Below, in pieces: positions 3,068-36,939 of a DNA stretch of 55,071 nt (positions within the stretch are counted from its first letter, which is position 1; the number at the start of each line of letters is the position of its first letter). This DNA comes from a virus (Duplodnaviria > Caudoviricetes). Under the pieces are notes generated by a model. That model had not been told where the DNA came from and searched no databases. It was given only the letters and a program-made list of their open reading frames with translations. Location: positions 1 through 55,071 of IMG/VR virus record IMGVR_UViG_3300005613_003983. One strand, given 5' to 3'. The position numbers and the translations under genes are program-made.

Positions 3068-3085
3068 CTAAGATAAAGAACGGAG

Positions 3086-3361: not shown

Positions 3362-3364
3362 AAA

Positions 3365-3700
3365 ATGGAAAATATTTTTAAAACAGCGGCTATTACATCA
3401 ATGATTGCAAGTAGTGTTTTGGCTATAGGAGCTTGTCTTTATTGGAAAGCATATAATGAAATGAAAAAATCGCCAATTATAGGTTGGGTTGCATCCTTAT
3501 TAACAATGGGTTCTATAACAACAGGAATTACTTCTCTAGCATATTTATTTTTTCAACCAATTTGTTTTTATTTTGCGATTGGTGCTAAAATAATACTTGC
3601 TTATACAGGATTTATGTTTATTAAAGTATCTTTAACTCCGACAAATGGAAAAATAAAAAAATTTGAAAAAGATATAAAAAAACATATAAAAAAGGAGTAA
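3365..3700 (+). CDS. Three-TM membrane protein, holin-like
   Basis: Three hydrophobic segments and a basic C-terminal tail; lies next to the putative endolysin. Confidence 0.45.
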   Translation: MENIFKTAAITSMIASSVLAIGACLYWKAYNEMKKSPIIGWVASLLTMGSITTGITSLAYLFFQPICFYFAIGAKIILAYTGFMFIKVSLTPTNGKIKKFEKDIKKHIKKE

Positions 3701-3702
3701 AT

Positions 3703-3726
3703 ATGAAGAATTTAAATGTTCCTTAT
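3703..3726 (+). pseudogene. Displaced original 5' end (MKNLNVPY) of the C39 peptidase gene
   Basis: AAGGAG RBS then ATG AAG AAT TTA AAT GTT CCT TAT; parallels MSSKNLDVKF at 4237; similarity ends where the HNH ORF stops. Confidence 0.65.
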
Positions 3727-4205
3727 TTATTGAATTGTGGAAGTCTTTCTTTACATTTATGAAGAATTTGATGACAACGATGACAAAGTATTTGCCAATT
3801 ACTTCCATTAAGTGGATTGTTTTTTCTATTTCTATCTTTGTGATGAATACAAAGATTTTTCTTAGAACCACATATAGAACATTTTCTTGGATAAATTTTA
3901 AAAGCCTCTCTTCGCCAGACACTTTGAGTGTTTTTTCCTTGATAATTAGGATTTTTCCAAAGGAACTTATCTTTCGATTTGGAACGAAGTTCTATATTAT
4001 ATTTTTTAAGCAATCTGCTAATAACATGATGAGAGACATTATAAAATTTACCAATTGTTCTACAACTCAATTCAATTTTATAAAGAGCAATAATTTTTTT
4101 TTCAGGCAATTTAATATAGTTATGTCCTTTTTTAAAAGCGGTTTTTGGAATAATGCCTGTTTTTTTTCCTTTATTCCAAGGAACTTGTCCCTTCTTAAAT
4201 TTCAT
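3723..4205 (-). CDS. Free-standing HNH homing endonuclease with NUMOD3-like N-terminus
   Basis: MKFKKGQVPWNKG; CSICG...CIHHKDRNRKNN...NWQILCHRCHQILH. The only convincing minus-strand gene; ATG at 4205 preferred over 4331. Confidence 0.85.
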   Translation of the reverse strand: MKFKKGQVPWNKGKKTGIIPKTAFKKGHNYIKLPEKKIIALYKIELSCRTIGKFYNVSHHVISRLLKKYNIELRSKSKDKFLWKNPNYQGKNTQSVWRREAFKIYPRKCSICGSKKNLCIHHKDRNRKNNPLNGSNWQILCHRCHQILHKCKERLPQFNK

Positions 4206-4236
4206 GATGGGACAATGATACAGGAGAATTAAAGAA

Positions 4237-5196
4237 ATGTCAAGTAAAAACTTAGATGTAAAATTTAAATCACAGTGGGATTCTGATGGAGGAATTTCAA
4301 AAGATGATTGTGGTCCAACTTGTTTAGCCATGATTCTTAATTATTATGGAGAAAAAGTTACCACTGATGAAGTTTTTAAAGCGACTGGAGCAGGAATTGA
4401 TAAATATGTGACCATTTCTCAATTAATAAAAGCGGGCAATAAGTGGGGATATAAAGGGCATTGGGAAATAAACTGCACAGAAAATAGATTAAAACAGTTA
4501 TTAAATAGAAGGTTGCCACCGATTGCTTTAATTCATTACGAACCCTTATCTTCAAGACAAGATAAGAATTTTGAGGGTGGACATTTTATTGTTATGGTTG
4601 GAGAAGATTGGGATGTGTGGATTGCTAATGATCCTGATTTTTGGGCACAATATAGAGAACATGGTAATCATCATAGATATTTGAAACCTGAATTTATTAA
4701 AGCGTGGGAAGAAGCTGTAAAAGATGGCAATTCTCCTAGAGGATTGCTTTGGTTTGAAAGAAAAACCCCAGCAGGTTCAAATTGTGAGGAAAAATTAAAA
4801 GAGGTAGAAAAAGAATTAAAAGAAAAAAATGAAGCATTAAAAAGGGTTAATAAAAGCCTTGCAACAACCAATAATGATAACACTGCATTAGGTTCAGAGA
4901 TAACAAAATTAGAAAATGATATAATAAAGGAGAAGCAAACATGTCAAAAAGAAAAGAACGATTTATCAAAAGAATTCAACCTAAAAGTCTCCACAGCGGA
5001 AAAGGCACTGAAAGAGGCGGAGAAAATTTGTGTAGAGGAAAAAAAGAAATTAGTAGAAACAAGTAAGTTAGAGCTACAGAAACAGGTTACTGATTTAGGA
5101 ACAGCGTTAGCAATAGCTACTGAAAATCTTGAAAAAATAGAAAGTTCACTTGCTTACAAGATTTTAAAATTAATTACTAATTTCAAAGGGAGGTGA
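4237..5196 (+). CDS. Peptidase C39-like protein with C-terminal coiled coil (putative endolysin)
   Basis: SQWD...DCGPTCLAM (catalytic Cys), GHFIVMVG (His), NDP (Asp). Confidence 0.75.
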   Translation: MSSKNLDVKFKSQWDSDGGISKDDCGPTCLAMILNYYGEKVTTDEVFKATGAGIDKYVTISQLIKAGNKWGYKGHWEINCTENRLKQLLNRRLPPIALIHYEPLSSRQDKNFEGGHFIVMVGEDWDVWIANDPDFWAQYREHGNHHRYLKPEFIKAWEEAVKDGNSPRGLLWFERKTPAGSNCEEKLKEVEKELKEKNEALKRVNKSLATTNNDNTALGSEITKLENDIIKEKQTCQKEKNDLSKEFNLKVSTAEKALKEAEKICVEEKKKLVETSKLELQKQVTDLGTALAIATENLEKIESSLAYKILKLITNFKGR

Positions 5197-5199
5197 AAA

Positions 5200-5466
5200 A
5201 TGGCAGCACCAGGAACACTAACAACACCTAGAGGTCAAGTTGCTAAATATGTCTATTATAGAACAGATTTAACTATTGCCGATCCCAACTATACACATAA
5301 TTCAGAAGCAACAGGAGAAGAAGGTAGTAATTCACTTCAAGGAATTCCACAAGCCGACTTAAATGCTTTTATAGCAGCTTATGGATGGACTTCGGGTGGA
5401 GAAGTATTAACATATAATCCTATTACTGACCGCTATGGTGTCAAAAATGGTAGTTATGTATTATAA
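5200..5466 (+). CDS. Hypothetical protein
   Basis: 88-aa ORF with GGAGGTGA RBS. Confidence 0.6.
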   Translation: MAAPGTLTTPRGQVAKYVYYRTDLTIADPNYTHNSEATGEEGSNSLQGIPQADLNAFIAAYGWTSGGEVLTYNPITDRYGVKNGSYVL

Positions 5467-5509
5467 AGAGAGATATTAATAAGGAGAGATATAAAGGAGG
5501 TGAAAAATT

Positions 5510-5632
5510 ATGGGTGCAACACATACACCAAATTATCCAACTAAAGCCCCTAGTGTTCCAACAGGACCAAAGGCTAAGGCTAAAAAATCACCTAGTAAAG
5601 TAATGACCCCTATGGGTAAAGCTAAAAAATAA
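5510..5632 (+). CDS. Small basic Pro/Lys-rich peptide (40 aa)
   Basis: AAAGGAGGTGA RBS; MGATHTPNYPTKAPSVPTGPKAKAKKSPSKVMTPMGKAKK; below the ORF-track cutoff. Confidence 0.55.
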   Translation: MGATHTPNYPTKAPSVPTGPKAKAKKSPSKVMTPMGKAKK

Positions 5633-5662
5633 TATAGGTTTTTTTAAAGGGGGTGAATTAAT

Positions 5663-5854
5663 ATTAAAGATTTTTTAAAAAGACTTTCAAGTCGTAAATT
5701 TTTATTGGCAATTGTCGCTATGATTGTTGCTTTTGGCAATGGTTATTGGGATTGGGGCTTAGAAGTAAAAGATATTATTGCTTTAGTTACTCCAGCTTTG
5801 GCGTTTATTGGTGCAGAAGGTTTAGCTGATATTAAAAGGATAAAAGCAAAATGA
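5663..5854 (+). CDS. Holin-like two-TM protein, apparent ATT start
   Basis: KRLSSRKFLLAIVAM...FIGAEGLAD resembles small phage holins; AAAGGGGGTGA RBS followed by ATT; in-frame TGA at 5654. Confidence 0.6.
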   Translation: MKDFLKRLSSRKFLLAIVAMIVAFGNGYWDWGLEVKDIIALVTPALAFIGAEGLADIKRIKAK

Positions 5855-6061
5855 GCAAAGAAATAGAACCTGCCGATTTAACACAAGAAGAAATAGAAGC
5901 CATTAAAGAACAAGTAGTTAAGGATTTGCCCTGGGCTGAACCACAAGAAGGGTCAGAGGGCGAAAAAAAAAGAACTCACTTGGGCCGAGCTTTGGGATTT
6001 AGTGGCTGAAGTTGGTGAATGGGATAAACAATTAGAAGAAATTAGAAAGGTAAATGAATAA
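5851..6061 (+). CDS. Small acidic protein, possibly frameshifted at an A9 run (5963-5971)
   Basis: MSKEIEPADLTQEEIEAIKEQ... stops at 6009 in frame 0; the +1 frame continues ELTWAELWDLVAEVGEWDKQLEEIRKVNE and overlaps the next start. Confidence 0.4.
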
Positions 6062-7028
6062 AGAAGCCGCTATTCATTATGTAGATGGCTCGTCAAGGAC
6101 AAGTGATGAAGTTAAAAGAAAGCTTCTACTAGAAGAGTCAACTGCAATTAGACACCTAACAGATTTTCCTGCTGGTCGTGATTTTGATGCTTGGACAGAG
6201 ATTGCTACTAGACAGCAACGGGAAAGGAAAGAACTTCTTGAAATACCTGAACATGTCCATGTTGAAATAGACACCAAAAAACCTATCCTTATTGGTTTGT
6301 TTGGTGATGTTCATGCTGGTGGAGAAGAGGTTGACTATGAGAGGTTTGCTAAAGATGTAAGAGCAATAAAAGAAGCTGATGGTTATACGATTACTGCTGG
6401 AGATTTAACCGATTCTTACTTCTTTATGCCGGGAGCAGGCGAACAAATTTTAACAGGACAGGAACAGCTTTTATATATGCAATCAGCTCTTGATAGATTG
6501 GCTGAAAATGGTAAGTTAATTGCAGGTTTTGGCGGTGACCATGACTTGTGGCCTAAAGACAAAGGTGGAGCACATACTTTATATCATCAGTTTAATCAAC
6601 GCTACAATGCTCATTATTTAGAAGGAGTATCTTATATCACTATTGGTTTAAATAATGGTGAAGAAGTGGTTGATTATAATATGGTAGGAGCACATAGGAG
6701 GCGAGGATTTTCGGTTTATAATGATTCTCATGCTAGTTTGAGACAAAGTAAAGATGAAGCTCCAGATTCAGATATGTCTTTTACCGCCCATAATCATGTT
6801 AAAGGTTATAATCAGCAAGTTCAAAAATTACAAGGTGGTGGAGAACATTTGGTTCATATGATGGCTTTAGGAGCTTATAAGGCTTCGGATAGATATAGTC
6901 GGAAAATGGGGTGGGCTAGAAAAGATGATGTGTCAATGGGGGGATTTGGAATAATTTTACACCCAGGAGAAAAAAATATTGAAGTGTTTTGGTCAATTTC
7001 TGAAGCATCAGAAAGGATGTTGCCATGA
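6054..7028 (+). CDS. Calcineurin-like metallophosphoesterase
   Basis: Metal-binding motifs GDVH, GDLTD, GDHD, AH, AHNH. Confidence 0.8.
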   Translation: MNKEAAIHYVDGSSRTSDEVKRKLLLEESTAIRHLTDFPAGRDFDAWTEIATRQQRERKELLEIPEHVHVEIDTKKPILIGLFGDVHAGGEEVDYERFAKDVRAIKEADGYTITAGDLTDSYFFMPGAGEQILTGQEQLLYMQSALDRLAENGKLIAGFGGDHDLWPKDKGGAHTLYHQFNQRYNAHYLEGVSYITIGLNNGEEVVDYNMVGAHRRRGFSVYNDSHASLRQSKDEAPDSDMSFTAHNHVKGYNQQVQKLQGGGEHLVHMMALGAYKASDRYSRKMGWARKDDVSMGGFGIILHPGEKNIEVFWSISEASERMLP

Positions 7029-7288
7029 ATAATTTAACGACTTTTGAAGAAGCCATAGATTCGGTTTTAAAAGAATTAAAGGATTTATTAATATTAAAAC
7101 AAAAAAGCTATGGTAAACATAATATTACAGATTTTGGCAAGTTTGGGATATTAGTAAGATTGAATGATAAAATAAGTCGTTTAAAAAATCTCCAAAATAA
7201 AAAGAACCCTTTAAAAGACGAAACAATTAAAGATACATGGAAAGATATTGCTAACTATGCAATTATTTGGCTCATGCTTGACAAATAA
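7025..7288 (+). CDS. Nucleotide-modification-associated domain 1 (DUF1599-like) protein
   Basis: KQKSYG...GILVRLNDKISRL...ETIKDTWKDIANYAII. Confidence 0.7.
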   Translation: MNNLTTFEEAIDSVLKELKDLLILKQKSYGKHNITDFGKFGILVRLNDKISRLKNLQNKKNPLKDETIKDTWKDIANYAIIWLMLDK

Positions 7289-7508
7289 ATCTTCGATTTA
7301 CCTCTTTCATAATAAAGAGAGATATTAGCAAAAGAGTAACGTATCCTGTGTGGAAACCATCAAAACATTTTTTTTATTTAATTTAAAGAATGACCACCCC
7401 CCGTGGGTTATGCCATTGTAATAGTATAATTGAGGGTTTGAGTTTTAGTTTAAAAAATAGATTTAAGATGGTTTGAGTTTGGGTTGTATATATAGGATAA
7501 AAGAGGGG

Positions 7509-7536
7509 TTGACCTTATCCCCGCTTATGATAAAAT
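7509..7536 (+). promoter_or_regulatory. Sigma70-type early promoter
   Basis: TTGACC-16 nt-TAAAAT with extended TG; immediately upstream of the small-gene array. Confidence 0.65.
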
Positions 7537-7586
7537 AATAATAACAAAGAATAATAGATTTTATTGAGAGGGGGTGACAAAACATT

Positions 7587-7754
7587 ATGACTCCAGAGCA
7601 AATTGCTGAATACAAAGATATGAAGGCTAAAAAAGAGGCTCAAAAGGCAAAGGACAAGGCGTATTATGAAAATTGGAAGGCTCAACAAAAGAAAATGAAA
7701 GCATTTTACGCAAAATGGTATGGCAAGGTGGTCAAAGGAACAAAAATTGAATAA
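7587..7754 (+). CDS. First early protein (55 aa, hypothetical)
   Basis: GAGAGGGGGTGA RBS; MTPEQIAEYKDMKAKKEAQK...; absent from the ORF track. Confidence 0.7.
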   Translation: MTPEQIAEYKDMKAKKEAQKAKDKAYYENWKAQQKKMKAFYAKWYGKVVKGTKIE

Positions 7755-9475
7755 TAGCCTGACAGAGTGGCTGAGCAATCGGCCACTCTGATGAGGTTTT
7801 TATCAAAGGGGGTGAAATTACCATATCTAAATACAAAAAATTTACAGAAGATGAGATTAAAGAGGTTTTAACAGATAGATGTCGGCACGGTTTACCAAGA
7901 ACATTCTGTTACCGATGGTTTAAAACTGTCGGACAATGGCAAAAAGCAATCTATCCTAGCAAATTACGCAAAGAATTATAGGATAAATCAAAAAGACGAT
8001 TTACCCCTATACAAAGTAACGATATTAGGTATAAAAGCATAAAATTACTAAAATAATTATGAGATATTTTATGAGTGATGATATTAAAAAAATAAACATA
8101 GAAAGTATTTTTAACCCCTCTTTTACCTCTTCTTTTAATCACTCCTCAAGTAAGTCTTATTGTCTTTATAATAAAAAAAGGCATATCAGAAAAATAAAAC
8201 AAAATATTCGGGACATTGGTTTATCTCTGCTTATGATTACATTATTTACACTATTCTTCGGGTATAACCTATTGCGGGGTATTGATAGATATTACGAAAA
8301 TCAAGACAAAATGTTCTGCAAATCGGCTTTAGTTAGCAAAAACAAGGAATATCTTAACAAATGTCAATGCTTTTACAAGGGGGGTGATATAAATTGCATA
8401 CATTAACAAAAAATGACTCATTAACAGAGTATAGACTGTCTAAAGAACCTAAATCATTACGACGACTGGCTTGGATTTTAGAAATGAAACGAAGCGTTCC
8501 CTATTGGAACTCACGAAATGTCAACAGAACAAGACGGTGGCTAAATATCAAAAGAGATAAACAAATTATATTACTAAAAAATGAAGGATTATCTCTGGAA
8601 AATATATTTGCTTTTGTCAAAAAATATAAGTTAGTCATCGAAATGTGCAAAAACTAGGAGCTTAACTTAATTCCCTAATCAATTAGGGAATTAGGACTAA
8701 TCTCTTACGAGAGGGGGTGACACATTATGAAAACAATCAATCTCTATATTAAACACAATTACGGTGCTGAATATGCCTATGTCAAAGACGAAAAAATGGC
8801 AAAACCGATCCGACAACTAACTGGACAAAAAACTGTTAGTCGAGGGCATATTAAAGCTCTAAAAGATTTAGGGTTTAATTTTAGAATAGTTACAAATACC
8901 GACATTATTGGATAAACAAGTCTTTTTACGAATGGGGGTGACAAAATTATGAGAAAAATAACTCAAAAAGAACTAATTCAAAACGAAGGATGTAGCAAAT
9001 ACTTATTAAAAAAAATCAAAAATCATGCTTTAAACAGTTTTTTTAGATTGAATGCTAAAACTGCTGATTGTTATGCTTTTGACATATCAAAAAATGATTG
9101 GTGCGGTGGTTGGGATTGGTCAACAATGTTAGTTGATTCTGAAGCAAAGTATCTTTTTATGTTAAAAGATAAAACTTTCTATCTTGCTTAAAGGAAGGAG
9201 GTAATTCTTATGATGGGAGCATTATACCCAACTAAAAAAGCATTAAAAGCTTGCGTCGGTCAGAGTTTGCGGTATCAAGAAACATCGATGTTTGGTGCTG
9301 AATACAAAAGAAATGGCAGTTTTTGTGTAGTCGGACCAAATCCGATAGAACGAAAATGGTTTGCTGAGGTAACAATGAAAAATGGCTTAATCGCAAAAGT
9401 CAGTTAGAGCTTAACAGAGTGAACAATCACTTGTTCACTCTAATGAATTTCTAACGAAAGGGGGTGACAACTATA

Positions 9476-10045
9476 ATGAATGATTACCAAAAAGAACAAA
9501 ACAAAAAAAGGCAAGAGTTATTAAAAACAGTTAAGAGCTTTACTAACGAAGCGGTCAAGTTAGAGGGCGGAGACAGTATGGCTGTTAAAATAACTAAAGA
9601 TTTTCCTATTTATATCAGAGGCAAGAACTTTAATAATCAATATACTTTTAGTTTATGGCATAAATTAAAATATATTACCCATTCTGATAGGAACAGAGTG
9701 GAGGAAAAATACCAAAAGCCTAATAATATAGGAGTAATGAACGCCAAAAAACTTGAAGCCTGGGTTAAGTATTTAAAATTGATATATCTTGACTTGTGTC
9801 AATTAAGTAAAGACAAACAAAACAAGGTCGATACCTTTATGACTAAGGTTAAAAAGATAAAAGACCTAAAATTAGGCGGTTACAACCTTAGTGAGGGCGA
9901 GTTTAGAGGAACTCTTGTCAAGGGCGGTTTAGACTATAGCTTTGAAATTAACAGGAGTGGCTATATTAACGAAAAAATAGAAGTCCACTATGCAACTGAT
10001 GAAACTCTTGAGAACTTTTTAAAGTTGGCAGACAACAAGCTTTAA
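9476..10045 (+). CDS. Hypothetical early protein
   Basis: GAAAGGGGGTGAC RBS then ATG 9476; long open frame. Confidence 0.7.
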   Translation: MNDYQKEQNKKRQELLKTVKSFTNEAVKLEGGDSMAVKITKDFPIYIRGKNFNNQYTFSLWHKLKYITHSDRNRVEEKYQKPNNIGVMNAKKLEAWVKYLKLIYLDLCQLSKDKQNKVDTFMTKVKKIKDLKLGGYNLSEGEFRGTLVKGGLDYSFEINRSGYINEKIEVHYATDETLENFLKLADNKL

Positions 10046-11104
10046 AAAGATTTAGAGCTTCACAGAGTGAACAAATAATTGTTCACTCTAATGAATCTTT
10101 AAAGAATGAACTAATTCAAGAAATTAAAAAGAAAGGAGGTAATGAACTATGACATCATTAAGTCTTAACAAAAAAGCACAGGTCAAATTGGGTATGGGTG
10201 GTGAGTATCTAGAATTGAATATCTTTGGATTAACCAAAGAAGAAATGAAAAAACTCTCCAGTCTTTCAAAAGGACATTTAAAACTAGACAAAGGAAATAA
10301 AGATACAAGCATTAAATGGTTGGCGGGATTAGCAAGAGTAGTATTTTTCAAAGATTAGAATTTAACAAAGCTTCTAACTAGTTTGGGGGCTTTGATTAGA
10401 TTTTAAGAAAGGAGGCTAACAATGAATGAAGGCATAGTCATAGGAATGGACGTTTTAACAATGACTGCTAGAGTAAGACTTAATGCAGAAACAATAAAAA
10501 GTATTAAAGCAGAAAGAATTTACAAAATGGGTGAAATTATTAAAATCTCACAGGAAATCCCTTGGTATCTAAAGAAGCAAATAATCAAAAAAGACATCTG
10601 GGGTAATCCTATACCTATTCACGGAGAGAGGATTGCTTAGAAAGGAGGCGGTAGTATGTATAAAAAAACAGAAGAACAACTAGAAGCAGAAATTATTGAC
10701 GAACTAATAAGAATGAAACGCTTTTGGCAAAAGCCAACGAGCTATAAAAATCATACCAAAAAATCCCTTGTTGATATGATTGGCTATGACCTAACAAGGA
10801 TTATGCTTGCTGTTAATGATTTAAAAGAAAGGAGGAAAAAATGAAAGTCAATAAAAAAGAAATGAGATATATTGACGAAATCTTAGAACTTATTGATAAC
10901 AGAGACGAATTCACACGAAGCGACCTTCAAGGTATAGTTGGAGCGTTAGTAAAAAAAATTATTGAGGAACAACGGAAAGTTTAATAATAAAGAAAACAGC
11001 TAATCATTTTACAAGTTTTTTAACTCTGGCTAGAGGTTAAGAGGCTGACTAAGCTGATTATACATTATTAGCACATTAAAAACTCGATCAGAAAAGGAAC
11101 AAAA

Positions 11105-11521
11105 ATGACAAGTGCAGCTATGGCAGCTAAAGCTATTCGAGAAGAATTGAAAATTAAATTTCCTAATATAAAATTCAAAGTTAGGAGTCAAAATTACTCA
11201 AATGGCAATTCAGTCAATATCAGTTATAAAAACGCCATTCCTGAGGACAAAATAGAAGCTATTGTTAATAAGTATCAATACGGCAATTTCAATGGCATGA
11301 TTGATCTATACGAAATGACCAATGATCGAAAAGATATTCCACAAGCGAAATATATTTTTGTCAATAGAGAAATCGATCAAGATATTCTTGACACTAAAAA
11401 ACTAGAAATTGCCAAAAAGTATGGCATAGAAAATCCCGATGATAATATGGAATGGCTAAAAAAATTCAATCAATACTCTGAGCAAATAGTCTGGAAAGAA
11501 GTATCAAAAATGACTATTTAA
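11105..11521 (+). CDS. LPD29-like (large polyvalent protein-associated) domain protein
   Basis: AAKAIREELK..FP..KFKVRS..YS.G.SV.I...KYQYG.FNGM.D.YE pattern. Confidence 0.6.
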   Translation: MTSAAMAAKAIREELKIKFPNIKFKVRSQNYSNGNSVNISYKNAIPEDKIEAIVNKYQYGNFNGMIDLYEMTNDRKDIPQAKYIFVNREIDQDILDTKKLEIAKKYGIENPDDNMEWLKKFNQYSEQIVWKEVSKMTI

Positions 11522-13460
11522 TCCTTCATAATCTCTTCAAGTTTGATCGAGGCTTGAAGAGATGATTAAGAGATTAAAGGAAGGAGGTGAAAAATATGAG
11601 AAAACTAAAAAAGTTTATTGATAGATTGAAAAGAGCTTGGGATTTAGCTAAGAAAATAAAGATAATTAGAAATAATGCTACTGGTATTGATGAGATATGG
11701 TTTGACAGAACAAAAAAAGCCAATAGAGGAATTTGTAGCTCTTATTGTAGAATTGCTTAGAAAGGTGGTGATATTTTATGAATGACGAAACCTATGAAGC
11801 ATTAAAAAGAGTAGTTAAAAAAACTAGAAATCTACTTAATACAAAATACGGACATAGAAAACGACTAAAATCAAATGAGGTATGGGAAAAAGCTGTCTTG
11901 ATTAAAGATATTAGGCAAGTAGAAAACTGGATTGACGAAACAGCTAAAGAACATAACTAATTAAATTATAACAGAGAGGTGGTGATAATATGAAAACCTA
12001 TATTCTCAAAAGTAACTATGAATATGAAATTCAAGCCAATAGTAAAGACGAAGCTCTTGAAAAGTGGAACGAAATAATTGAAGAGGAATTAGGATCTACT
12101 AATCAGGGTCTTTTGAATGTGCTTTGCGAAAGTTTGTATGCTAAAGAAATATAAAGAAAAGAAAGGAGTTAGAAACTAATATCTAGAATGAATAAAAACT
12201 ATTCTTCTAAAAGGGAGGTGATAAATTATGAGCAATAAATTAAATGCTGAAGATGAACTAGAAATTGCTACAGAGATGATGACTGAAGCACAATATGACG
12301 AATTTCTGAAAAGAGTGGAAAAGGCAGAAGGAAAAGAAGAATAAACATAAAAACTCACAAAAAGGAGGTGAAAAAAATGATTGACAGAGGCAGAGATGAA
12401 TATGGACAATTTGTTTCCTATCTTCCTCGATATTACGATCATCATAAATCTTATCTTGAGCTACACGATAATCATACTATCTGGGATTTAGAAAATGAAA
12501 ATAAAACAGACGAGGAGTATCTTGTGCTAGTAGAAGAAGCTGTTCAGTTTTTTGAATTAAGAACAGAAACACCCTTGTTTCTCTTAGGTAGGTCAGGAAG
12601 ACACGTTTGTGTAGAGGATAATTATAAAAACAGCAAAAGGTATCAATGGTTAAAAAGGGTAGCTTTAGAATTAGAACAAAATATGATTGATACTTTTAAT
12701 ACGAAATAAGAACTTCATTGGCAAGATAAGTATACCTTGTCTTGCTAAATGAATCCCTTATGAAAGGAGGTTATTATGAAAAAATATATTAACGGTTTGT
12801 CAGGAGAAGAAGAACATTTAGCATTAAAGATGTTAAATAAAAAAGAGATGACAGAAGAACAAAAAGACTTCTTGAAAAGATTAGAAGAATTTTTCAAGTG
12901 GAACTGCAGTAAAAGTGAAATGGATGATAGAGCAATGATTTTGAATCAATTATTAGAAGAATTAACAAATTATTAAAAAACATTAATAGAGAGGGGGTGA
13001 AAAACATGACAAGAGGAAAATTTGTCTTAATAACTAAAAAGCAGGTTTATATTAGCACAGAATTCAATGGCGATATGTATCCTGAATATCATGGCAAAGA
13101 TGTTTATAGACGATTATTAAAGGTAAAAAATTTAGCAGATTTAACCAGAGAAGTTAAAGACTTTAATAAACAAAACTTTAATTACAAAGAAAAGCTCATA
13201 AATGAGAGAAGTCTTAAATGGTTAAAGAAAACTAAGGATTTTAATTGGAGATACTTTGATAATTGGTTCAGTGACTGGCTCTATATTAAAAATCTTTCGG
13301 GTGAAGATATTACCTTCATATTGGATAAAAGCAAAAAAGATAGACTTGTGCTTAATGGAGAAACAGTTGCTTTTTATTTTGGTCGAAATCCTAATAAAAA
13401 GGAAAAAGAGCATCTTATGCATATAGTCTAAAAAAGTCTAAAAAAGAGGAGGTGATATTT

Positions 13461-13625
13461 ATGGAAATTACCAAAGAAGATTTTGAGAGCTATAAAAGGG
13501 TAAGAGACTCTGGGGTAACTAATATGTTTAATGTTAAAAAAGTTGGCGAGCTTTCAGGATTGGAGAAAAAGACGATACTTGAGATAATGAAAAACTATGC
13601 AACTTTAGAGAAAAACTATGCATAA
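13461..13625 (+). CDS. DUF5049-like small protein
   Basis: VRDSGVTNMF motif; GAGGAGGTGA RBS. Confidence 0.55.
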   Translation: MEITKEDFESYKRVRDSGVTNMFNVKKVGELSGLEKKTILEIMKNYATLEKNYA

Positions 13626-13699
13626 GTAGTCTGACAGTAGAGGTTTGTCTAAGGCGGATAAACCTCTACTGATGAGATTATTTAGAGAGGAGGTGAATT

Positions 13700-21633: not shown

Positions 21634-22477
21634 ATGTATAGAAAAATTATGAAATATATAAAAGAAGATTTAGATTTTATCTTCATTAGAACAAAAAATT
21701 CCTCTGGTAAATGGGATAATTTATCCCTTAATCAAGTCACTGATAAACAATTCGTTGATTGGGCTAAAAATAGGTTTAACATAGAAATTAAAGACGATGT
21801 TTCTGTTAGAGAAAATCCTTGGACTCCTGAACAAAAAATTCACTTTTTAAATTCCATGAGTAAGCGTATGGGTGGTAAAGATTGCGTTGTTATGGTTAAA
21901 AGAAGTGTAAGAAAAAAATGGAAATAAATAAATTTGTATTAATAAGAATAAAAGGTGGAGCTGTAGTAAAAATACCAAGAAACTTTACTTATGCTGAATG
22001 TAAATGTGGAGCTAAAGATATTGTCTGGGTAAAAACTCTGAATGATAAAGATATGCCGATTAGATGGTCAGACAAAGATAAAAATTGGATATCGCACTTT
22101 TCTGACTGTCCACTTGCTTCACAATTTAGAAAGAAGAAAAAAGAAATATAGATTAAAAACTAAATAATGTGAAATCATTTATAGATTTATCTGAATTAAA
22201 AGTCTATAGAGACAATATAGACGGTGAAGATGATGGAATTGGAAGATTATTCGCAGCGATTTATAGGTTGGCTGTAACAGATGAGATTAATGCCAACTTA
22301 TATGGAACAAATAACAAGAATGTTGTTAGGTGGGTTGAGAGTAGATATTTTGCTGTTTATTTAAAAATGCTTGGAATAGAATTTTCTAATAGATTTAGAG
22401 AGGCTTTCTGGAAAACTTGTGAAAATAGATTTAAGAAAACAGTTAATAGATTAACAGGAAAAAAATTATATAAATAG
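21634..22477 (+). other. Three hypothetical genes (21634, 21918 zinc-binding, 22169)
   Basis: Packed ORFs; 21918 has CKCG...HFSDC. Confidence 0.6.
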
Positions 22478-22616
22478 TTTTTTAAACAGGTAGAATGGTA
22501 AAAACGATTCTATTCTTGGGTAGAGCGAATGGTCGTTCTACCTGCTTAGAAAATTATTTATTTCATGTTGGAATGGTAGCCCTAATACAAAACCTGTATT
22601 GTGACCGTTTCAGCAT
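22471..22616 (+). ncRNA. Candidate structured RNA: two adjacent long hairpins
   Basis: 22471-22498 pairs with 22533-22560 (27/28, including 4 G-U); 22565-22577 pairs with 22604-22616 (13/13 with G-U), enclosing an inner hairpin. Confidence 0.6.
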
Positions 22617-22642
22617 TAAGTAAAGAATTAAAAAAGGAAAAT

Positions 22643-22861
22643 ATGTCAGCAGATAACTATATATACATAGATAAAAAAACATTTGAGGTTTGGTCTTGTG
22701 TGGCTTCTGAATTAGAAGGAACAGAAGAAATAGGACTAGAGAACCAAAAAAGTAGTTTAATTGGTAAAGGAAAGAATTTAGAGGAAGCTATTAAAATTGC
22801 TGAACAAGTTAATAATTATCTAGTAGAGTATGGAATTCACTTTAAATTATGGTGTAAGTAG
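22643..22861 (+). CDS. Hypothetical protein
   Basis: AAGGA RBS then ATG 22643 (MSADNYIYI...). Confidence 0.6.
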   Translation: MSADNYIYIDKKTFEVWSCVASELEGTEEIGLENQKSSLIGKGKNLEEAIKIAEQVNNYLVEYGIHFKLWCK

Positions 22862-22879
22862 AAAGGGGGTGAAATAAAT

Positions 22880-23386
22880 ATGGATGAAATGTCAGAATTT
22901 ATAAAAGAATTGATGGAAAAAAATGAAGTAGAGCCTATTAAAATAAAACAGGGAATAATTGCTTATCGTAAATATCTTTGGGCTTTGAAACACATAGAAG
23001 ATAAAGTAATTAAGTTAAAACAGTACAGACAACAAGTTATTGATGATATTAATGTAGGAATTGAGAAACAAGAGGCTAATATTAATAGGATTAAAAAAGA
23101 GATTCAAGACGCCATGATTCAAGACCCAATAGTAGATAGTACTAAAACTGGAGGAAGAACTTTATCTTTGCCTGATATTGCCACTGTGTCTTTAAGCAAA
23201 ATTAGAGAGAATGTTGTAATAAATGATGAAGAAGCCTTGTTAAAGAAGTTAGGACAAGAGTTTGCTAAGATAAAGGTATCTTTGGATAGAACAAAAGCGA
23301 AAAGGCATATTTTAGAAACTGGTAAAATACCAGAGAATGTTGAAATAAAGAAAGGTCGTACTTTGTCAATTAGATTTAAAAAATAA
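22880..23386 (+). CDS. Gam-like / Gp157-like coiled-coil protein
   Basis: Long coiled coil, then RTLSLP..ATVS..K and K.SLD...AK; GAAAGGGGGTGA RBS. Confidence 0.6.
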   Translation: MDEMSEFIKELMEKNEVEPIKIKQGIIAYRKYLWALKHIEDKVIKLKQYRQQVIDDINVGIEKQEANINRIKKEIQDAMIQDPIVDSTKTGGRTLSLPDIATVSLSKIRENVVINDEEALLKKLGQEFAKIKVSLDRTKAKRHILETGKIPENVEIKKGRTLSIRFKK

Positions 23387-23387
23387 T

Positions 23388-23449
23388 CTAATTGTGTTCC
23401 GAACCTTCTTTTAAGGTCACCCCCTTTCCAGAATTCGGAACACAATTAG
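23388..23449 (+). ncRNA. Perfect 16-bp hairpin presenting an anti-Shine-Dalgarno loop
   Basis: CTAATTGTGTTCCGAA / TTCGGAACACAATTAG; loop contains GTCACCCCCTTTC. Confidence 0.6.
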
Positions 23450-23534
23450 TATGAGTAATTAGGGTTGAGAGGTAGATTACTCATATGAGGAAAGATTGTC
23501 TTGGCAGAGATTTTTCATTCATCCCTCTCAACCC
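23450..23534 (+). ncRNA. Candidate pseudoknot or switch in the operon leader
   Basis: 23450-23459 pairs with 23476-23485; loop 23462-23472 pairs with 23524-23534. Confidence 0.55.
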
Positions 23535-23541
23535 AAATAAT

Positions 23542-23766
23542 ATGAAAGTAAAAGTAGAAGAAAAATTATTAAAGATAATAAGCTCATTTGTTGGACAAGA
23601 GCTTAAATATGGAGAACTGAAAGATATTAAGGTTAATAATAGAAGTGTTTTAGTTTTAGAACTAACCTTTTCAGATGAGGGGTTTTTTAGAACTATGGTT
23701 TTAGCATTAGATAAGAATTTAACAGTTTCTTTATATTCTCCGATAGCAGAAGAATTAATAAAATGA
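23542..23766 (+). CDS. Hypothetical protein upstream of rtcB
   Basis: MKVKVEEKLL...; ATG 23542 preferred because 23485 lies inside the RNA structure; ATGA overlap with rtcB. Confidence 0.55.
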   Translation: MKVKVEEKLLKIISSFVGQELKYGELKDIKVNNRSVLVLELTFSDEGFFRTMVLALDKNLTVSLYSPIAEELIK

Positions 23767-25010
23767 AAGTAACTAGTTCAGAAAAACTACCAGTCAAATT
23801 GTGGATGGAAAACTTTACTGATATGGAATCAGGGGCTTGGAATCAAGTTAAAAACCTTGCTAATTTTCCATTTGCTTTCAGACATATAGCTATAATGCCT
23901 GATGCTCATCAAGGTTATGGTATGCCTATTGGTGGAGTTATGGCTACTAAAAATGTAATTGTTCCAAATGCTGTTGGTGTTGATATTGGTTGTGGAATGT
24001 GTGTGGTTAAAACTTCTTTAAAAAAGATTGATGTTGATATTCTTAAAAAGATTATGGGAGAAATTAGAAAAGTAATTCCGCTTGGATTTAATAAACACAA
24101 AGAAAAACAAGATGAAAAGTTAATGCCTCAGGGTGTGGGGCAGTTGGCTAGCTCGCCCGAGTTGGATTCGGGAGGTCGTAGGTTCGAGTCCTACCACCCT
24201 GACCAACAATTTTCGATTATTAAACAAGAATATGAAAATGCTTTAATGTCCCTTGGTACTCTTGGTGGTGGCAATCACTTCATTGAAATTCAAAAAGGTT
24301 CAGATGGTTATATTTGGATTATGATTCATTCAGGAAGCAGAAATTTAGGTTTTAAAGTGGCTAATCATTATAATAAACTAGCGGTTGAACTAAATGAAAA
24401 GTGGGGTTCAGCTGTTCCTAAATCTTGGGAGTTAGCTTTTTTACCAGTAGATAGTAAAGAAGGTCAAGCATATATCAAAGAAATGCGATATTGTATTGAT
24501 TTTGCTTTAGCCAATAGAAAGCTCATGATGGATAGGATTTGTAAAATTGTTGAATCTGCATGTATACCAGATTATCCAGAATCAGCAAACATTGTTTTCG
24601 ACAAAATGATTAATATTGCCCACAACTATGCAGCACTGGAAAACCACTTTGGTCAAAATGTATGGGTTCATAGAAAAGGAGCAACTAAAGCTACAAAAGG
24701 ATTAACAGGTATTATTCCAGGCTCTCAAGGAACTAATAGTTATATTGTAGAAGGATTGGGAAATAGAGAATCTTTTATGTCTTGTTCTCATGGTGCGGGT
24801 AGAAAAATGGGAAGAAAACAAGCTAGAGAAAATTTAGATTTAAAAGAGGAGTTAAAAAAGATGGAAGGTATTGTTCATGGAATTAGAAGTGTTAAAGATT
24901 TAGATGAAGCTCCTGGAAGTTATAAAGAAATAGACAAAGTAATGAGTAATCAATCTGACCTTGTAAAAATATTAGTAGAGCTTACTCCTCTAGCAAATAT
25001 GAAAGGATAA
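23763..25010 (+). CDS. rtcB: RtcB 3'-phosphate/5'-OH RNA ligase
   Basis: [65 protein letters not shown] motifs. Confidence 0.97.
24129..24205 (+). tRNA. tRNA-Pro(TGG) with encoded CCA, nested in frame within rtcB
   Basis: Acceptor CAGGGTG/CACCCTG, D stem GGGC/GCTC, anticodon stem CCCGA/TCGGG with loop GTTGGAT, variable AGGTC, T arm GTAGG-TTCGAGT-CCTAC, then A-CCA; 77 nt, 48/77 G+C. Confidence 0.93.
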
Positions 25011-25014
25011 TATT

Positions 25015-25383
25015 ATGGAACTTAAAGAACTTATTGGAAAAACATTGACAAAAATTGAAAATAAGGACAATGAAGAACTTATTTTTGAATGTAATGATGG
25101 AACTAAATATAAAATGTTTCACTATCAAGATTGTTGTGAATCAGTAACAATAGAAGATATTTGTGGCAATTTAGATGATTTGATTGGAAATCCGATTCTT
25201 AGAGCAACTGAAGACACTAATTCAAAATCCAATTCAGAAGGAATAAAAAAAGAATATCAAGACTCTTTTACTTGGACTTTTTATAATATTTCAACAGTCA
25301 AAGGAACTGTAACTATTAGATGGTATGGTGAATCTAATGGTTATTACTCTGAATCAGTTGATTTTGAAAAAATAAAAGAATGA
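25015..25383 (+). CDS. Conserved phage hypothetical protein
   Basis: H.QDCCESV...WTFY...[14 protein letters not shown]. Confidence 0.7.
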
Positions 25384-25892
25384 AAATAACATTACAATAT
25401 ATTGCTGGATTTTTTGATGGCGAAGGATGTATAGGAATTTATTCTAAAGCATATAGAAAAGGAACATTTCATCTAAGTACACAATTAACTCAAAATAAAA
25501 CTAAAGAGAGTAAATTATTAATGAATTTTTTAGCAAAAAAGTTTGGTGGTAATATATCAGAACAAATTACACTATCTAAAGATATTAAATATAATTGGCA
25601 ACTTGGATCTGATAATGCAGTTAACTTTCTTGAGGCGATATTGCCATATTTAATTCTTAAAAAAAGTCAAGCTATAATCGCTATAAATTGGCAAAAAGAT
25701 AGGCCAAAAAGAATAAGAGATAAAAAAGGAAGATTTTATGTTAAAAGAAAAAGAAACATAGAATTTGATAAAAAAGTTTCTAAATTAGTTAAGTTGTTAA
25801 AAAAGAAAGATATTGATTGGGTAATGGAACAACAAAAAGATTTAGTTAAAATTTTGGTTGAATTAACACCATTGGCAGTTATAAAAGCATAA
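25380..25892 (+). CDS. LAGLIDADG homing endonuclease ending in a duplicate RtcB C-terminus
   Basis: [21 protein letters not shown]; last 28 aa [28 protein letters not shown]. Confidence 0.9.
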
Positions 25893-31113: not shown

Positions 31114-31389
31114 ATGATAAAGAAAGAAGAAGATATGAATAAAAAGGAAAATTTTGAAACTTCTCAAATTCATGTTGTTGTTTGGCTTCAAATGAATGGT
31201 TTTCCTATAAAAGAAATAATTTGGTCTAGTGATGATAGAGCTGTTTTTGTTTTTAAAAATTTCAAAGGTAGAGAAAAATTAATTCAAGATTTTTTTAAGG
31301 AAGAAAAATTACAAAAATATATTTCTGTTTCACAAGAAACAAGAGCTAGGATGTATGCTTGTAAACCATCTAATAGACGTAGAATATGA
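31114..31389 (+). CDS. DUF5659-like protein
   Basis: FETS......WL...GF.I......RAVFVF pattern. Confidence 0.45.
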   Translation: MIKKEEDMNKKENFETSQIHVVVWLQMNGFPIKEIIWSSDDRAVFVFKNFKGREKLIQDFFKEEKLQKYISVSQETRARMYACKPSNRRRI

Positions 31390-33416
31390 GAGACAGCTTA
31401 GGAAAAGCAATTTTGAAAATAAATAAAAAGTTTGGAGAGAATACAATCGGAAGATTAGACAAAATGCCATCTATTCAAGCTGAACGAATTTCTTCTGGTT
31501 CTCCTTATCTCGATTGGTGTACTGGTGGTGGTTTTCCTTTAGGTAAAACTATTGAACTTTATGGTCCTTATTCCTCTGGTAAATCTTTAATTGCTCTTAA
31601 AACAATTGCCGAAGCTCAAAAGAAGGGTTTAAAATGTGTTTATCTTGATTCTGAAAATGCTTTTGATCCTAACTTTGCTAGTAAAATAGGAGTTAATATT
31701 AATGAGTTAATAATTTCACAGGTTTCGGCAGGAGAAGAAGTTTTTGATATTGTTGATATGCTTCTTGATTCTAGTGTTTCTATTATTGTTATTGATAGTG
31801 TTGCCTCTCTTGTTCCTAAATATGAAATGGAAGAATCTGTAGAAAAACAAACAATGGCTTTACAAGCTAGATTAATGAGTAAAGCACTTAGAAAGATAAC
31901 GGGAAAGGCATCTAAAAATAATACTTTAATATTTTTTATTAATCAAATAAGAGAAAAGATAGGTTGCTTTCAATACAATACAAGAGTTGTTTTAGAAAGT
32001 GGGGAAACAGAAAAAATAGGATATTTGGTTAATAATAAAACTAAATGTAATGTGCTTTCTTATAATACTGAAAAAAACATTATCGAACCTACATCAATTA
32101 CTAATTGGTTCATAAACGGTAATGCTTATTATTTTCTCCACTTTAGATTTAAAAAACCACAAGGTAGAGGTAGGGGTGAGTTTGGTTGTACTCCCGACCA
32201 TAAGATAATGATTAAACCAGGTATCTATAAAAAAGCAAAAGATATAAAGGTTGGCGATAAAATATTAACTATAATAAATGATTGGATACCAAGTAATCTT
32301 CAAAAAGAAATCATAATTGGTGGATTATTGGGTGATGGTTGCTTAAGAAATGTTGGTGATGCTAAATATCAATATAGAGAAACTCATTGTAAAGAACAAG
32401 ATGATTATATTCGTTGGAAATCTGGTTATTTTGATACTAAAACAATGGGAAGACATAAATATGGTGGATTATATTTTGAGACTTTTTTAAGCACGACATT
32501 TGAAGAACAATATATTAAATTCTATTCAGGTGGTAAAAAAATTAAAATACCAAAAGATATTAAATTAACTCCTTTAATTTTAGCTATTTGGTATCAAGAT
32601 GATGGATATTTGGCAAACAAAGATAAAAAAGCTATTGTTTTAGCTACTAATTGTTTTAGAAAACAATCAATAGAAAATTTACGAGAAGCATTAAGAAAAC
32701 AGTTCAATATAGAAACGGGCATTAAAAGTAGAAAACATGGTTCAGAAATAGAATTGACTTTGGGGAACAAAGATACTTTAAAATTCTTTGAAATATGCGG
32801 GAATTTTATTCATCCTTCAATGTATTATAAATTACCAAATTATGGGAAAGAAAAAAATCTAACTTTATTTATTCCTTCGTTACCAGAAAAAGAATTTGAA
32901 GTTAAAAAACAAATTCTTAAATATAGTTATGTTACTCATAAATATAGTAAGCCAAAAACAAGAAGCATGGTTAAGTTCGACATAGAAACAAAAAATCATA
33001 ATTATTTAGCTGATGGAGCTATTGTTCATAATTCATATGGAAATCCTGAAATAACAAGTGGTGGTAGGGCTTTAGGATTTTATGCTTCTTTAAGGATTGT
33101 TGTCCGTAAAGGTGAATTACTTAAAGAGGATAAAATAGTAACAGGACAAGTAGTTAAATTTAAAGTAACCAAATCAAAAATATGTCAACCTTTTAGAGAT
33201 GGTTATTTTATTTTTTATCATCCAAATCCTGCTCATCCTGATTTAGAATTGTTTGATACGTCTGATGAATTAGTATCAATGTTGCTTATCCAAGAAAAGA
33301 TTAAGAGGAGAGGAGCTTATTATGATGTGTTAGAACAAACATTTCAAGGCAGAGAAGAATTAGAAAGAGAAATTAGAAGTAATAAAAAGTTTAGAAAGAA
33401 ATTAGAGAAATTATGA
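31386..33416 (+). CDS. recA: RecA recombinase containing an intein
   Basis: GPYSSGKS Walker A, IVIDSVA, QARLMSKALRK, INQIREKIG, GGRALGFYAS. Confidence 0.95.
   Translation: MRDSLGKAILKINKKFGENTIGRLDKMPSIQAERISSGSPYLDWCTGGGFPLGKTIELYGPYSSGKSLIALKTIAEAQKKGLKCVYLDSENAFDPNFASKIGVNINELIISQVSAGEEVFDIVDMLLDSSVSIIVIDSVASLVPKYEMEESVEKQTMALQARLMSKALRKITGKASKNNTLIFFINQIREKIGCFQYNTRVVLESGETEKIGYLVNNKTKCNVLSYNTEKNIIEPTSITNWFINGNAYYFLHFRFKKPQGRGRGEFGCTPDHKIMIKPGIYKKAKDIKVGDKILTIINDWIPSNLQKEIIIGGLLGDGCLRNVGDAKYQYRETHCKEQDDYIRWKSGYFDTKTMGRHKYGGLYFETFLSTTFEEQYIKFYSGGKKIKIPKDIKLTPLILAIWYQDDGYLANKDKKAIVLATNCFRKQSIENLREALRKQFNIETGIKSRKHGSEIELTLGNKDTLKFFEICGNFIHPSMYYKLPNYGKEKNLTLFIPSLPEKEFEVKKQILKYSYVTHKYSKPKTRSMVKFDIETKNHNYLADGAIVHNSYGNPEITSGGRALGFYASLRIVVRKGELLKEDKIVTGQVVKFKVTKSKICQPFRDGYFIFYHPNPAHPDLELFDTSDELVSMLLIQEKIKRRGAYYDVLEQTFQGREELEREIRSNKKFRKKLEKL
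31965..33032 (+). mobile_element. Intein (356 aa) with LAGLIDADG endonuclease in RecA
   Basis: G|CFQYNT...TPDH...GGLLGDG...WYQDDG...IVHN|S. Confidence 0.92.
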
Positions 33417-36344: not shown

Positions 36345-36848
36345 GGGTTGAGGATTTTTCCTCAATTATGTTAGAATTAATATTGGCAGCAGGAATTGCT
36401 ATCTTGCTTTATGCTACTTATGTTTTTTTAGGAAAAGGAGAAAAAAGCATAGAAGAACGCCATAAAAGATTCTTTTGTAGAAACGGAAAACCGTTAAAGT
36501 AAAAAGGGTTAAATTATTAACTGTTGGTCAAAAAACTCATTATTTTATTCTTACAGATGCAGAATTTAAACCAAAGAAATTAAAAAAGGTTCAATTTCTT
36601 GATAAGAATGAAAAGTTTAAAAAGGTCATTAAAAAGCCAACAAGTAAATAAATTAATAGATTTACTAAAAAGTTCATATAAGCTAAATAAAAGCTATAGA
36701 ATGAATATTTTTTGGTATTATAAAAATAGACTTGAGAGATTTTATAAGGAAAAGACAATAATAGGATTAAAAAGTAGAGTAATTAATAAAGTAGGATTTA
36801 ATTTTTAGAGAAGATGGGTTCGATTTTCGCCCGATATCCAAGCAAAAT

Positions 36849-36921
36849 CAGAGATTAGCTTAGCTGGTAGAGCATATCGTTTGGGACGATAAGGTCATAG
36901 GTTCGATCCCTATATCTTTGA
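36849..36921 (+). tRNA. tRNA-Pro(TGG), free-standing, CCA not encoded
   Basis: CAGAGAT/ATCTTTG, D stem GCTT/GAGC, TATCG-TTTGGGA-CGATA, ATAGG-TTCGATC-CCTAT, discriminator A. Confidence 0.9.
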
Positions 36922-36939
36922 TTAGTTAAAGGAAAAGTT

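Follow-up and report, generated by a model that had tools for sequence, protein, structure and literature searches.

Why should a phage place, directly behind one of its genes, a hairpin whose loop resembles the anti-Shine-Dalgarno (anti-SD) sequence of the ribosome? Such a hairpin was found at positions 23388-23449 of the viral record IMGVR_UViG_3300005613_003983, whose analysed stretch of 55,071 bases is called the window throughout (estimated completeness 54%, G+C ~30%). Every gene-like open reading frame (ORF) of at least 90 amino acids in the window lies on the + strand, and the hairpin follows the stop codon of a gene for a Gam-like protein. Our analysis showed a conserved, covarying + strand RNA hairpin at the Gam-like stop codon, which is a member of a small, undescribed family of structured RNAs located after the Gam-like genes of ~100-kb phages. 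The perfect 16-bp stem and the 30-nt loop with an anti-SD-like motif, which the original prediction had proposed, were both borne out by the inverted-repeat listing and the sequence. The arms were 16 nt each, 100% complementary and 30 nt apart, and they formed the sole perfect inverted repeat of at least 16 nt among the 25 longest of the 43 pairs listed for the window. The RNA fold of the hairpin reached -28.6 kcal/mol, compared with -8.1 ± 2.3 kcal/mol in 200 shuffled sequences (z = -9.0). An Rfam 15 scan of the whole window at the gathering threshold returned two tRNA matches and nothing else, leaving the hairpin without a family; in a permissive scan of 23300-23600, the two best overlapping matches scored 18.6 bits against a threshold of 60 and 18.5 bits against a threshold of 55.

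To follow the hairpin in related phages, a homology search was performed with the Gam-like protein. It yielded 47 relatives, from which an alignment of 43 sequences was made, and with this alignment as the probe we obtained 4 loci from IMG/VR and 40 from metagenomes. The junction after the Gam-like gene was readable in 37 loci, and the hairpin was located directly 3' of the stop codon in 11 of these, as well as in the window. The Gam-like proteins of the carriers were 55-90% identical to that of the window. Eight distinct versions of the hairpin were distinguished (the window, L044, L047, L049, L060, L064, L068, and L040); the window version was identical in L042 and L043, the L040 version was identical in L067, and L052 carried the L049 hairpin. 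The consensus fold of seven sequences contained 16 pairs, of which 9 were changed on both sides, and a covariance model was built from these sequences. When all eight versions were aligned, 10 of the 16 stem pairs were changed on both sides. The proportion of paired cells was 93.8%, compared with 84.5 ± 1.6% in shuffled alignments (0 of 500 reached the observed value) and 24-45% when the partners were slid by 1-3 columns. Five stem substitutions separate the window from L044, its closest relative: two pairs are compensated (T-A to C-G and G-C to T-A), one T-A has become T·G, and none is disruptive. Measured with its flanks, the stalk had 16 bp in two versions (the window and L044) and ~21-26 bp, broken by 1-3 small interruptions, in the remaining six; in all eight it began 0-1 nt past the stop codon or contained it. 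The covariance model gave matches of 40-77 bits only at the 3' ends of Gam-like genes (79 sources, 513 kb including the window), and it detected L040 at 39.9 bits although that version was outside the seven-sequence training set.

The covariation also favoured one of the two strands. The alignment contained 13 G·U cells and 5 C·A or A·C cells, which means that the + (mRNA) strand pairs better. Since the core of the loop was kept in the relatives while the stem covaried, a functional + strand RNA displaying an anti-SD-like sequence is supported. We considered whether the locus might have no RNA function and be a relic of an inverted ribosome-binding site (RBS), an RBS of the minus strand, or a DNA palindrome serving as a protein-binding or replication site. 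The arms do form a perfect palindrome, and a real RBS of the window has the loop as its exact reverse complement. However, none of the eight versions offers a usable minus-strand start beyond the motif, the only candidate being an ATG 3 nt past it in L068 that opens just 9 codons; the absence of such a start had been claimed for the window and extended to the seven relatives. All genes are on the + strand, the wobble pairs favour that strand, the stem carries compensatory changes across eight lineages, the motif is conserved inside diverged loops, and the reading frame through the loop varies among relatives. A non-functional inverted RBS is largely excluded by this evidence, and the explanation as a whole appeared scarcely plausible. 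Translation through the hairpin by read-through or bypass was rejected, because the motif is read in different frames (as S-P-P in the window, L044, and L049 and as I-T-S in L060) and because relatives lacking the hairpin end the Gam-like protein at the same residue.

The loops were anchored on a single pentamer, and their conserved parts, located in the 3' half of the loop, read GG-N(0-2)-UCACC-N-CC, while the remainder had diverged. The pentamer UCACC was identical in seven of the eight loops, with U-ACC in L068; N-CC followed it in 7/8, and GG preceded it by 0-2 nt in 7/8. Thus the loop, whose conservation the original prediction had left to be checked in relatives, kept a UCACC-N-CC core in seven of the eight versions. 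The likeness to the 3' tail of 16S rRNA, proposed with one T>C change, was upheld in that change, but one A was also missing from the window (GG-TCACC versus GGATCACC). The 16S-tail string GAUCACCUCC was exact only in L060, whose loop contained the full 15-mer GGATCACCTCCTTTC; the other loops differed from it by 1-3 changes. UCACC-N-CC was present in six further versions with variable spacing and centre base, and the L040 loop was degenerate (CACCCTT). In seven of the eight minimum-energy folds, a 2-4-bp helix of (A)GG(N) with (N)CC(U) lay beneath a 5-7-nt apical loop containing UCACC, and in 7/8 the apical UCACC was unpaired, as is characteristic of the conserved, unpaired C-rich loops of the RsaE/RNAIII class. 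Two changes in the loops, those of L047 and L049 described below, suggest that the small helix is real.

The comparison of loci further showed how the element is tied to its gene. The order of the Gam-like gene followed by p74, a gene for a 74-residue protein, was broadly preserved among the loci. In most of them the two genes overlapped or were 6-27 nt apart, often with GGAGG ahead of p74, and in loci without the hairpin they were 0-27 nt apart, with p74 abutting or overlapping the Gam-like stop. The window had a gap of 155 nt between the two genes, and this gap contains the hairpin. Because the gene downstream of the hairpin varied (five versions have p74, and three have another gene, which is cysteine-rich), the element goes with the 3' end of the Gam-like gene. 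In a tree of 31 distinct Gam-like proteins, the nine hairpin carriers required five state changes, at least three of which were forced by well-supported branches. Near-sisters differed in this respect, with the hairpin present in L068 and absent from L055, and present in L064 and absent from L058; the comparison of near-sisters revealed a clean insertion or deletion that splits an overlapping ATGA stop/start. The window and the complete genome G001 each hold a single copy, so that the multi-copy character of miniature inverted-repeat transposable elements (MITEs) or repetitive extragenic palindromes (REPs) was not observed. The element is single-copy and locus-bound.

Further searches for the element and its neighbourhood gave the following results. 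Among 50,697 deposited phages, close relatives were not found; RtcB matched Erwinia phages at 72-78% identity without synteny. A single-protein search of IMG/VR with the Gam-like protein and a search of genome representatives with the Gam-like alignment returned no relatives, the latter also giving no hint of the host. Scanned by pattern, neither IMG/VR nor a collection with one representative genome for each prokaryotic species revealed an additional copy of the hairpin. The sole match of the exact stem pattern in IMG/VR (L003) was rejected as an unrelated perfect hairpin. A stem pattern independent of the loop gave 2 matches in IMG/VR and 32 among genome representatives, and these were also rejected, with maxima of 11.7 and 24.3 bits versus 40-77 bits for real copies. 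The loop-plus-3'-arm pattern occurred in at least 119 stretches of IMG/VR, and 0 of the 80 loci listed fitted the model at E <= 1. Relatives of the RtcB gene were rejected as a source of hairpins, since 0 of 34 loci had a Gam-like gene or p74 beside RtcB.

If the loop displays an anti-SD-like sequence, candidate partners should be sought among the ribosome-binding sites of the phage. The exact reverse complement of GTCACCCCCTTTC was the RBS at 9456-9468, and the stretch 22861-22873 at the Gam-like gene mismatched this complement only at its last base, giving 12/12 over 22861-22872; both matches agree with the original prediction. Six matches to GTCACCCCCTTTC with at most one mismatch were observed in the window, while 0.03 were expected. 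The sequence GGGGGTGA occurred ten times on the + strand (0.68 expected), and its sole minus-strand copy lies within the hairpin. The sites of this kind listed earlier were real, but those at 8380 and 28525 had been overlooked. An ATG or TTG start was located 5-9 nt downstream of eight of the ten, and after GGTG the sites continue with ACA, AAA, ATA, or AGA, not with CC. The sites at 5649 and 7808 had no ATG, GTG, or TTG within 3-15 nt downstream and may be unused or may serve non-standard starts. The wider class GGNGGTGA was represented by 26 sites on the + strand of the window, compared with 2.2 expected on both strands, and was divided into 12 GGAGG, 10 GGGGG, 3 GGTGG, and 1 GGCGG. Twenty of these 26 were inside 3082-13696 (10.6 kb), downstream of an endolysin-like gene (4237-5196), in a region that holds mainly small ORFs, most of them without a family match. 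Sigma-70-like sites, used as a test for an early region, were not enriched in the interval 3-15 kb (48 observed versus 49.1 expected). Extended RBS sites were sparser in the relatives, with 3-16 per 40-115 kb (6-16 in the 100-115 kb of complete relatives). CACCNCC was found at two positions only on the + strand of the 55-kb window, 7395 and 23418.

We then evaluated the pairing energetically. The predicted duplexes between the loop and the RBSs at GGGGGTGA sites ranged from -22 to -27 kcal/mol. The CCCCC loop of the window was 3.5-7.3 kcal/mol better than the canonical 15-mer (from L060) on GGGGGTGA and ~4-5 kcal/mol worse on GGAGG. According to these models, the window loop would be selective for one site class through one base. 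In the explanation that we favour, at a probability of roughly 40%, the element is an RNA of the intergenic or 3'-untranslated region (3' UTR) and tunes translation by pairing with ribosome-binding sites of the GGUGA / GGNGGUGA kind.

Such pairing could proceed as follows. The apical UCACC would nucleate pairing with the GGUGA part of the extended SD GGNGGUGA, and the pairing would then extend into CC-N-CC(UUUC). In its exposed form, U-C-A-C-C is reminiscent of the U-turn loops found in antisense RNAs. The extended duplex would block binding of the 30S subunit and would possibly form a substrate for RNase III. With C as the centre base, the window loop would outcompete the canonical anti-SD only on the GGGGGUGA class (10 sites), which would include the Gam-like RBS on the same transcript. 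The stalk, for its part, would fold the insert away so that the Gam-like stop and the next start stay near each other, and this nearness would keep the translational coupling seen in relatives without the element.

The presence of a matching RBS on the same transcript raises a purely cis-acting explanation, in which the 3' hairpin pairs with the SD of its own Gam-like gene and limits a potentially harmful DNA-end-binding protein, in the manner of icaR or of the fold-back elements of type I toxin mRNAs. Between the loop and its own RBS, complementarity was longest in the window (12 nt), followed by L044 (9 nt) and L060 (7 nt), and it did not exceed 5 nt in the five others. The centre base was changed on both partners, with CCCCC/GGGGG in the window and CCTCC/GGAGG in L044, and no GGGGG site was found in 3.3 kb of L045, which is nearly identical to L044. 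From the sequences, one joint change of loop and RBS between the window and L044 is suggestive and no more. The covariation of loop and RBS that the original prediction had put up for checking was therefore visible in this one comparison and was not seen in the other six versions, where the two share at most 7 nt. In the fold of the whole mRNA, 12 SD nucleotides were paired with the loop in the window, and the folds of those six versions gave zero pairing probability; the long-range pairing with the SD of the upstream gene, as first proposed, was thus predicted for the window and not for its relatives. The element is always tied to the Gam-like gene whatever gene follows, and the loops of L064, L068, and L047 are near the canonical tail despite a weak own RBS. 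A precedent for pairing with the own SD is provided by icaR, as reported in the cited work (PMC3868564). On balance, a purely cis function seemed quite unlikely to us.

Several results weigh against the pairing with ribosome-binding sites to which we gave roughly 40%. In six of the eight versions, loop and Gam-like RBS have no more than 7 nt in common, and the whole-mRNA fold joined loop and SD only in the window. A partner site at a conserved position was not found within 1.2-11 kb around each copy, and the complete genome G001, which bears the L040 loop variant, had no matching RBS class (2 forward matches versus 2 in the control). A generic anti-SD would also strike the 12 GGAGGTGA sites of the phage, with pairing ~4-5 kcal/mol weaker in the window. 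No promoter-like or terminator-like signal delimits a separate small RNA around the hairpin. Half of the anti-SD core (CC) was predicted to be paired inside the small helix. In L047 (CCGCC), the centre G faces U where the other versions have A opposite U, and L049 has U-A in place of A-U as its outer pair, which accounts for its loss of the UUUC that would extend the anti-SD. In the predicted folds, these two changes suggest that shape matters, beyond SD complementarity alone. The element is also dispensable: at least 3-5 gains or losses are required on the Gam tree, and the complete relatives G002 and G003, scanned over their entire length, contained no copy, whereas G001 has one. The reading is weakened above all by the covariation of the small helix and by the degenerate variants.

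The same features bear on the possibility that the loop mimics the 3' tail of 16S rRNA or serves as an operator to which a protein binds. The small hairpin GG-N-UCACC-N-CC would then be recognised by a factor of the host or the phage whose usual ligand is the ribosomal tail, and the RNA would act as a decoy, a titrator, or an autoregulatory operator. The candidate readers would be Era, the 3'-end maturation machinery, bS21, or an anti-SD-clipping nuclease. Consistent with such a role, the conserved GG and UCA are not needed for pairing with the SD sites of the phage, the changes in the loop keep the small helix and not the SD complementarity, and L060 has the exact GGATCACCTCCTTTC. Era is described as contacting GAUCA and the anti-SD of the single-stranded 16S tail (PMC10582724). 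The RtcB gene lies close downstream of the hairpin, and E. coli RtcB is reported to re-join the 16S 3' end removed by MazF (PMC5416887). However, GG and UCACC are separated by anything from 0 to 2 nt, the A is missing from the window, and the C is missing from L068; the motif is partly paired, while Era binds a single strand. Single-stranded display beside a helix-45-like hairpin was not found, since the motif lies in a loop with its CC paired and no likeness to helix 45 was seen upstream by eye. No gene for S21 or RNase III was found in the window, whose record is 54% complete, and RtcB was near the Gam-like gene in relatives both with and without the hairpin. The predicted fold of p74 (predicted local distance difference test score 87) had no PDB match at E <= 0.001, the best being E = 0.037, and no RNA-binding fold was seen. 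Given this balance, a tail mimic or protein operator was judged unlikely. A special form of it, in which a deliberate mimic works with RtcB either as a decoy for tail-clipping nucleases in abortive infection or as a spare or altered tail ligated to clipped 16S rRNA, is highly improbable; if a tail joined by RtcB were true, the ribosomes in the window's case would gain a CCCCC anti-SD matched to the GGGGGUGA sites.

The stalk itself suggests a further explanation, namely an RNA processing or stability element. By serving as an RNase III site or by stopping 3' exonucleases, it would uncouple or stabilise the message of the Gam-like gene within its operon, with the loop motif serving for folding only and the stalk also keeping the stop and the next start adjacent. 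The stalks of 16-26 bp abut or include the stop in all versions, and they span about two turns of double-stranded RNA, as RNase III sites do. The downstream start lies 0-32 nt past the stalk, with no or a weak SD in 7/8; in the window and L044, no SD precedes the p74 ATG. Where the element is missing, the two genes overlap or lie next to each other. Intergenic RNase III sites of phages T7 and SP82 are comparable to the stalk. Other units combining a hairpin with an RBS exist in the window at 7752-7806, 9404-9458, and 10052-10106. What this explanation leaves unexplained is the retention of UCACC-N-CC in seven of eight otherwise changed loops and the identity of the motif with the ribosome tail. 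Moreover, the hairpin has no U-tract: no T-run was present 3' of the stem in any of the eight copies, the loop measures 30 nt, and 0 terminator-like sites were found in 22000-24200, where nothing had the properties of an intrinsic terminator. We regard a mere processing element as somewhat unlikely. No convincing promoter-like site was found upstream near the hairpin, and a processed RNA species from this region is possible.

The three units just mentioned are copies of one 55-nt sequence, 64-87% alike, and in each a hairpin (CAGAGTG...CACTCTG/A) immediately precedes a strong RBS. In the small-ORF region these units may serve for processing or form leader structures.

The coordinates of the hairpin, of its candidate partners, and of the neighbouring features are collected in Table 1.

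Table 1. Positions of the hairpin, its parts, the candidate partner sites, and the surrounding features in the window.
Feature	Position	Strand	Remark
Main stem, 5' arm CTAATTGTGTTCCGAA	23388..23403	+	Begins 1 nt past the Gam-like TAA stop
Loop, 30 nt	23404..23433	+	U-rich 5' part, then small helix and apical loop
Small helix in the loop (predicted)	AAGG 23413-23416 with CCUU 23423-23426	+	From the fold
Apical loop UCACCC	23417-23422	+	Predicted fold
Anti-SD-like GTCACCCCCTTTC	23416-23428	+	Within the 30-nt loop
Main stem, 3' arm TTCGGAACACAATTAG	23434..23449	+	Inverted repeat, covariation
Gam-like gene, 168 amino acids	22880..23386	+	phrog_253 'Mu Gam-like end protection', E = 2.2e-6
RBS of the Gam-like gene GAAAGGGGGTGA	22861..22872	+	12/12 complementary to the loop
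p74, 74 amino acids	23542..23766	+	No family match; alpha-beta3-alpha model
RtcB RNA ligase gene	23763-25010	+	0.3 kb downstream of the hairpin
Second hairpin	Arms 23458-23472 / 23524-23538 (span 23458..23538)	+	15 nt, 93% complementary
Alternative stem, ATGAGTAAT with ATTACTCAT	23451-23459 with 23476-23484	+	Excludes the second hairpin
GGGGGTGA RBS cluster	7570..13000: 7570, 7808, 8380, 8713, 8934, 9460, 12993	+	Candidate partners of the CCCCC loop
GGGGGTGA sites beyond the cluster	5649, 22865, 28525	+	

Besides the main hairpin, several features of the region were observed. The second hairpin was common only to the window and L044, where its stem was identical and its loop unrelated. The alternative stem would expose GAGAGG and is retained in L044 through a G·U wobble. 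A tRNA-Pro(tgg) was identified at 24129-24205 inside the RtcB ORF and in frame with it (ARAGORN; Rfam tRNA 57.3 bits); it accounts for an insertion of ~26 amino acids (residues ~123-149) that is absent from the 69%-identical RtcB of L004, and a second tRNA-Pro(tgg) is located at 36848-36922. In L060 (5090-5443), the RtcB match ends at residue 118, near the point of the tRNA insertion in the window, and this locus may carry an insertion at the same site. Downstream of RtcB, the interval 25015-25892 contains an ORF with a DUF7448 match and an ORF for a LAGLIDADG endonuclease. The last 27 amino acids of the endonuclease ORF repeat the RtcB C-terminus, with 52-81% identity to the RtcB ends of 26 loci, so that the interval has the appearance of a homing cassette that entered RtcB close to its 3' end and duplicated the end of the gene. 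The genes for a UvsX-like recombinase, the large terminase, and the portal protein (31386-33416, 44551-48342, and 48388-50994) have internal matches to LAGLIDADG or HNH endonucleases or to intein-bearing families, which suggests that several essential genes of the window harbour inteins or selfish inserts of another kind.

Previous studies provide systems with which the hairpin can be compared, and in our assessment anti-SD-bearing regulatory hairpins and 3'-UTR elements have precedents in Gram-positive bacteria. The staphylococcal RNAs RsaE and RNAIII are described as using unpaired C-rich UCCC loops that bind the SD and block initiation (PMC2790875). Like them, the hairpin offers an unpaired, C-rich, SD-complementary loop on a stable hairpin, and this loop lies in the most conserved part of a variable RNA. 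RsaE and RNAIII, however, are small RNAs transcribed separately, each from its own promoter to its own terminator, and neither signal was found for the hairpin; their motif is the 4-nt UCCC, whereas the hairpin has a 7-13-nt match to the whole anti-SD region, half closed by the small helix. In Staphylococcus aureus, the UCCCCUG of the icaR 3' UTR is reported to pair with its own SD and to yield a substrate for RNase III (PMC3868564). Similarly, the hairpin has a C-rich motif in the untranslated 3' part of an mRNA that is complementary to the SD on that mRNA, over 12 nt in the window and over 9 nt in L044; blocked initiation and a substrate for RNase III would be the outcome to expect. It differs in that the motif tops a 16-26-bp stalk abutting the stop codon in a polycistronic phage message, in that own-SD complementarity is absent from 6/8 relatives, and in that the motif extends to the 16S-tail-like UCACC-N-CC.

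Among phage systems, the T4 RegB endoribonuclease is reported to cut GGAG in the SD of early mRNAs (PMC1702504). Both would be phage devices aimed at SDs that could silence one class of messages, and RegB would be the analogue of an early-to-middle switch; RegB, as described there, is a protein nuclease aided by ribosomal protein S1, while the agent of the hairpin would be RNA. The 16S tail bound by Era (GAUCACCUCC...) matches the hairpin in sequence, with L060 equal to GGATCACCTCCTTTC (PMC10582724), but the hairpin motif sits in an mRNA loop, is partly paired, has no free 3' end beside helix 45, and shows variable GG-UCACC spacing. A full-text literature search found no phage RNA with the anti-SD of the ribosome at the tip of a conserved hairpin, as judged by titles and the openings of abstracts. 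The long intergenic stems in polycistronic messages that serve as RNase III hairpins in T7 and in the Bacillus phage SP82 resemble the stalk. We know of no anti-SD display at these T7 and SP82 sites.

Phage-encoded regulatory RNAs are poorly charted, and the element adds a clean, small, covarying motif whose natural presence or absence and loop variants make it readily testable in reporters. If the pairing with SDs is true, the hairpin would be an RNA counterpart of T4 RegB that re-ranks the translation of host or early messages, with a class selectivity built in through one base, CCCCC versus CCUCC. If the mimicry of the 16S tail is true instead, phage and host would seem to be in conflict over the 3' end of the ribosomal RNA.

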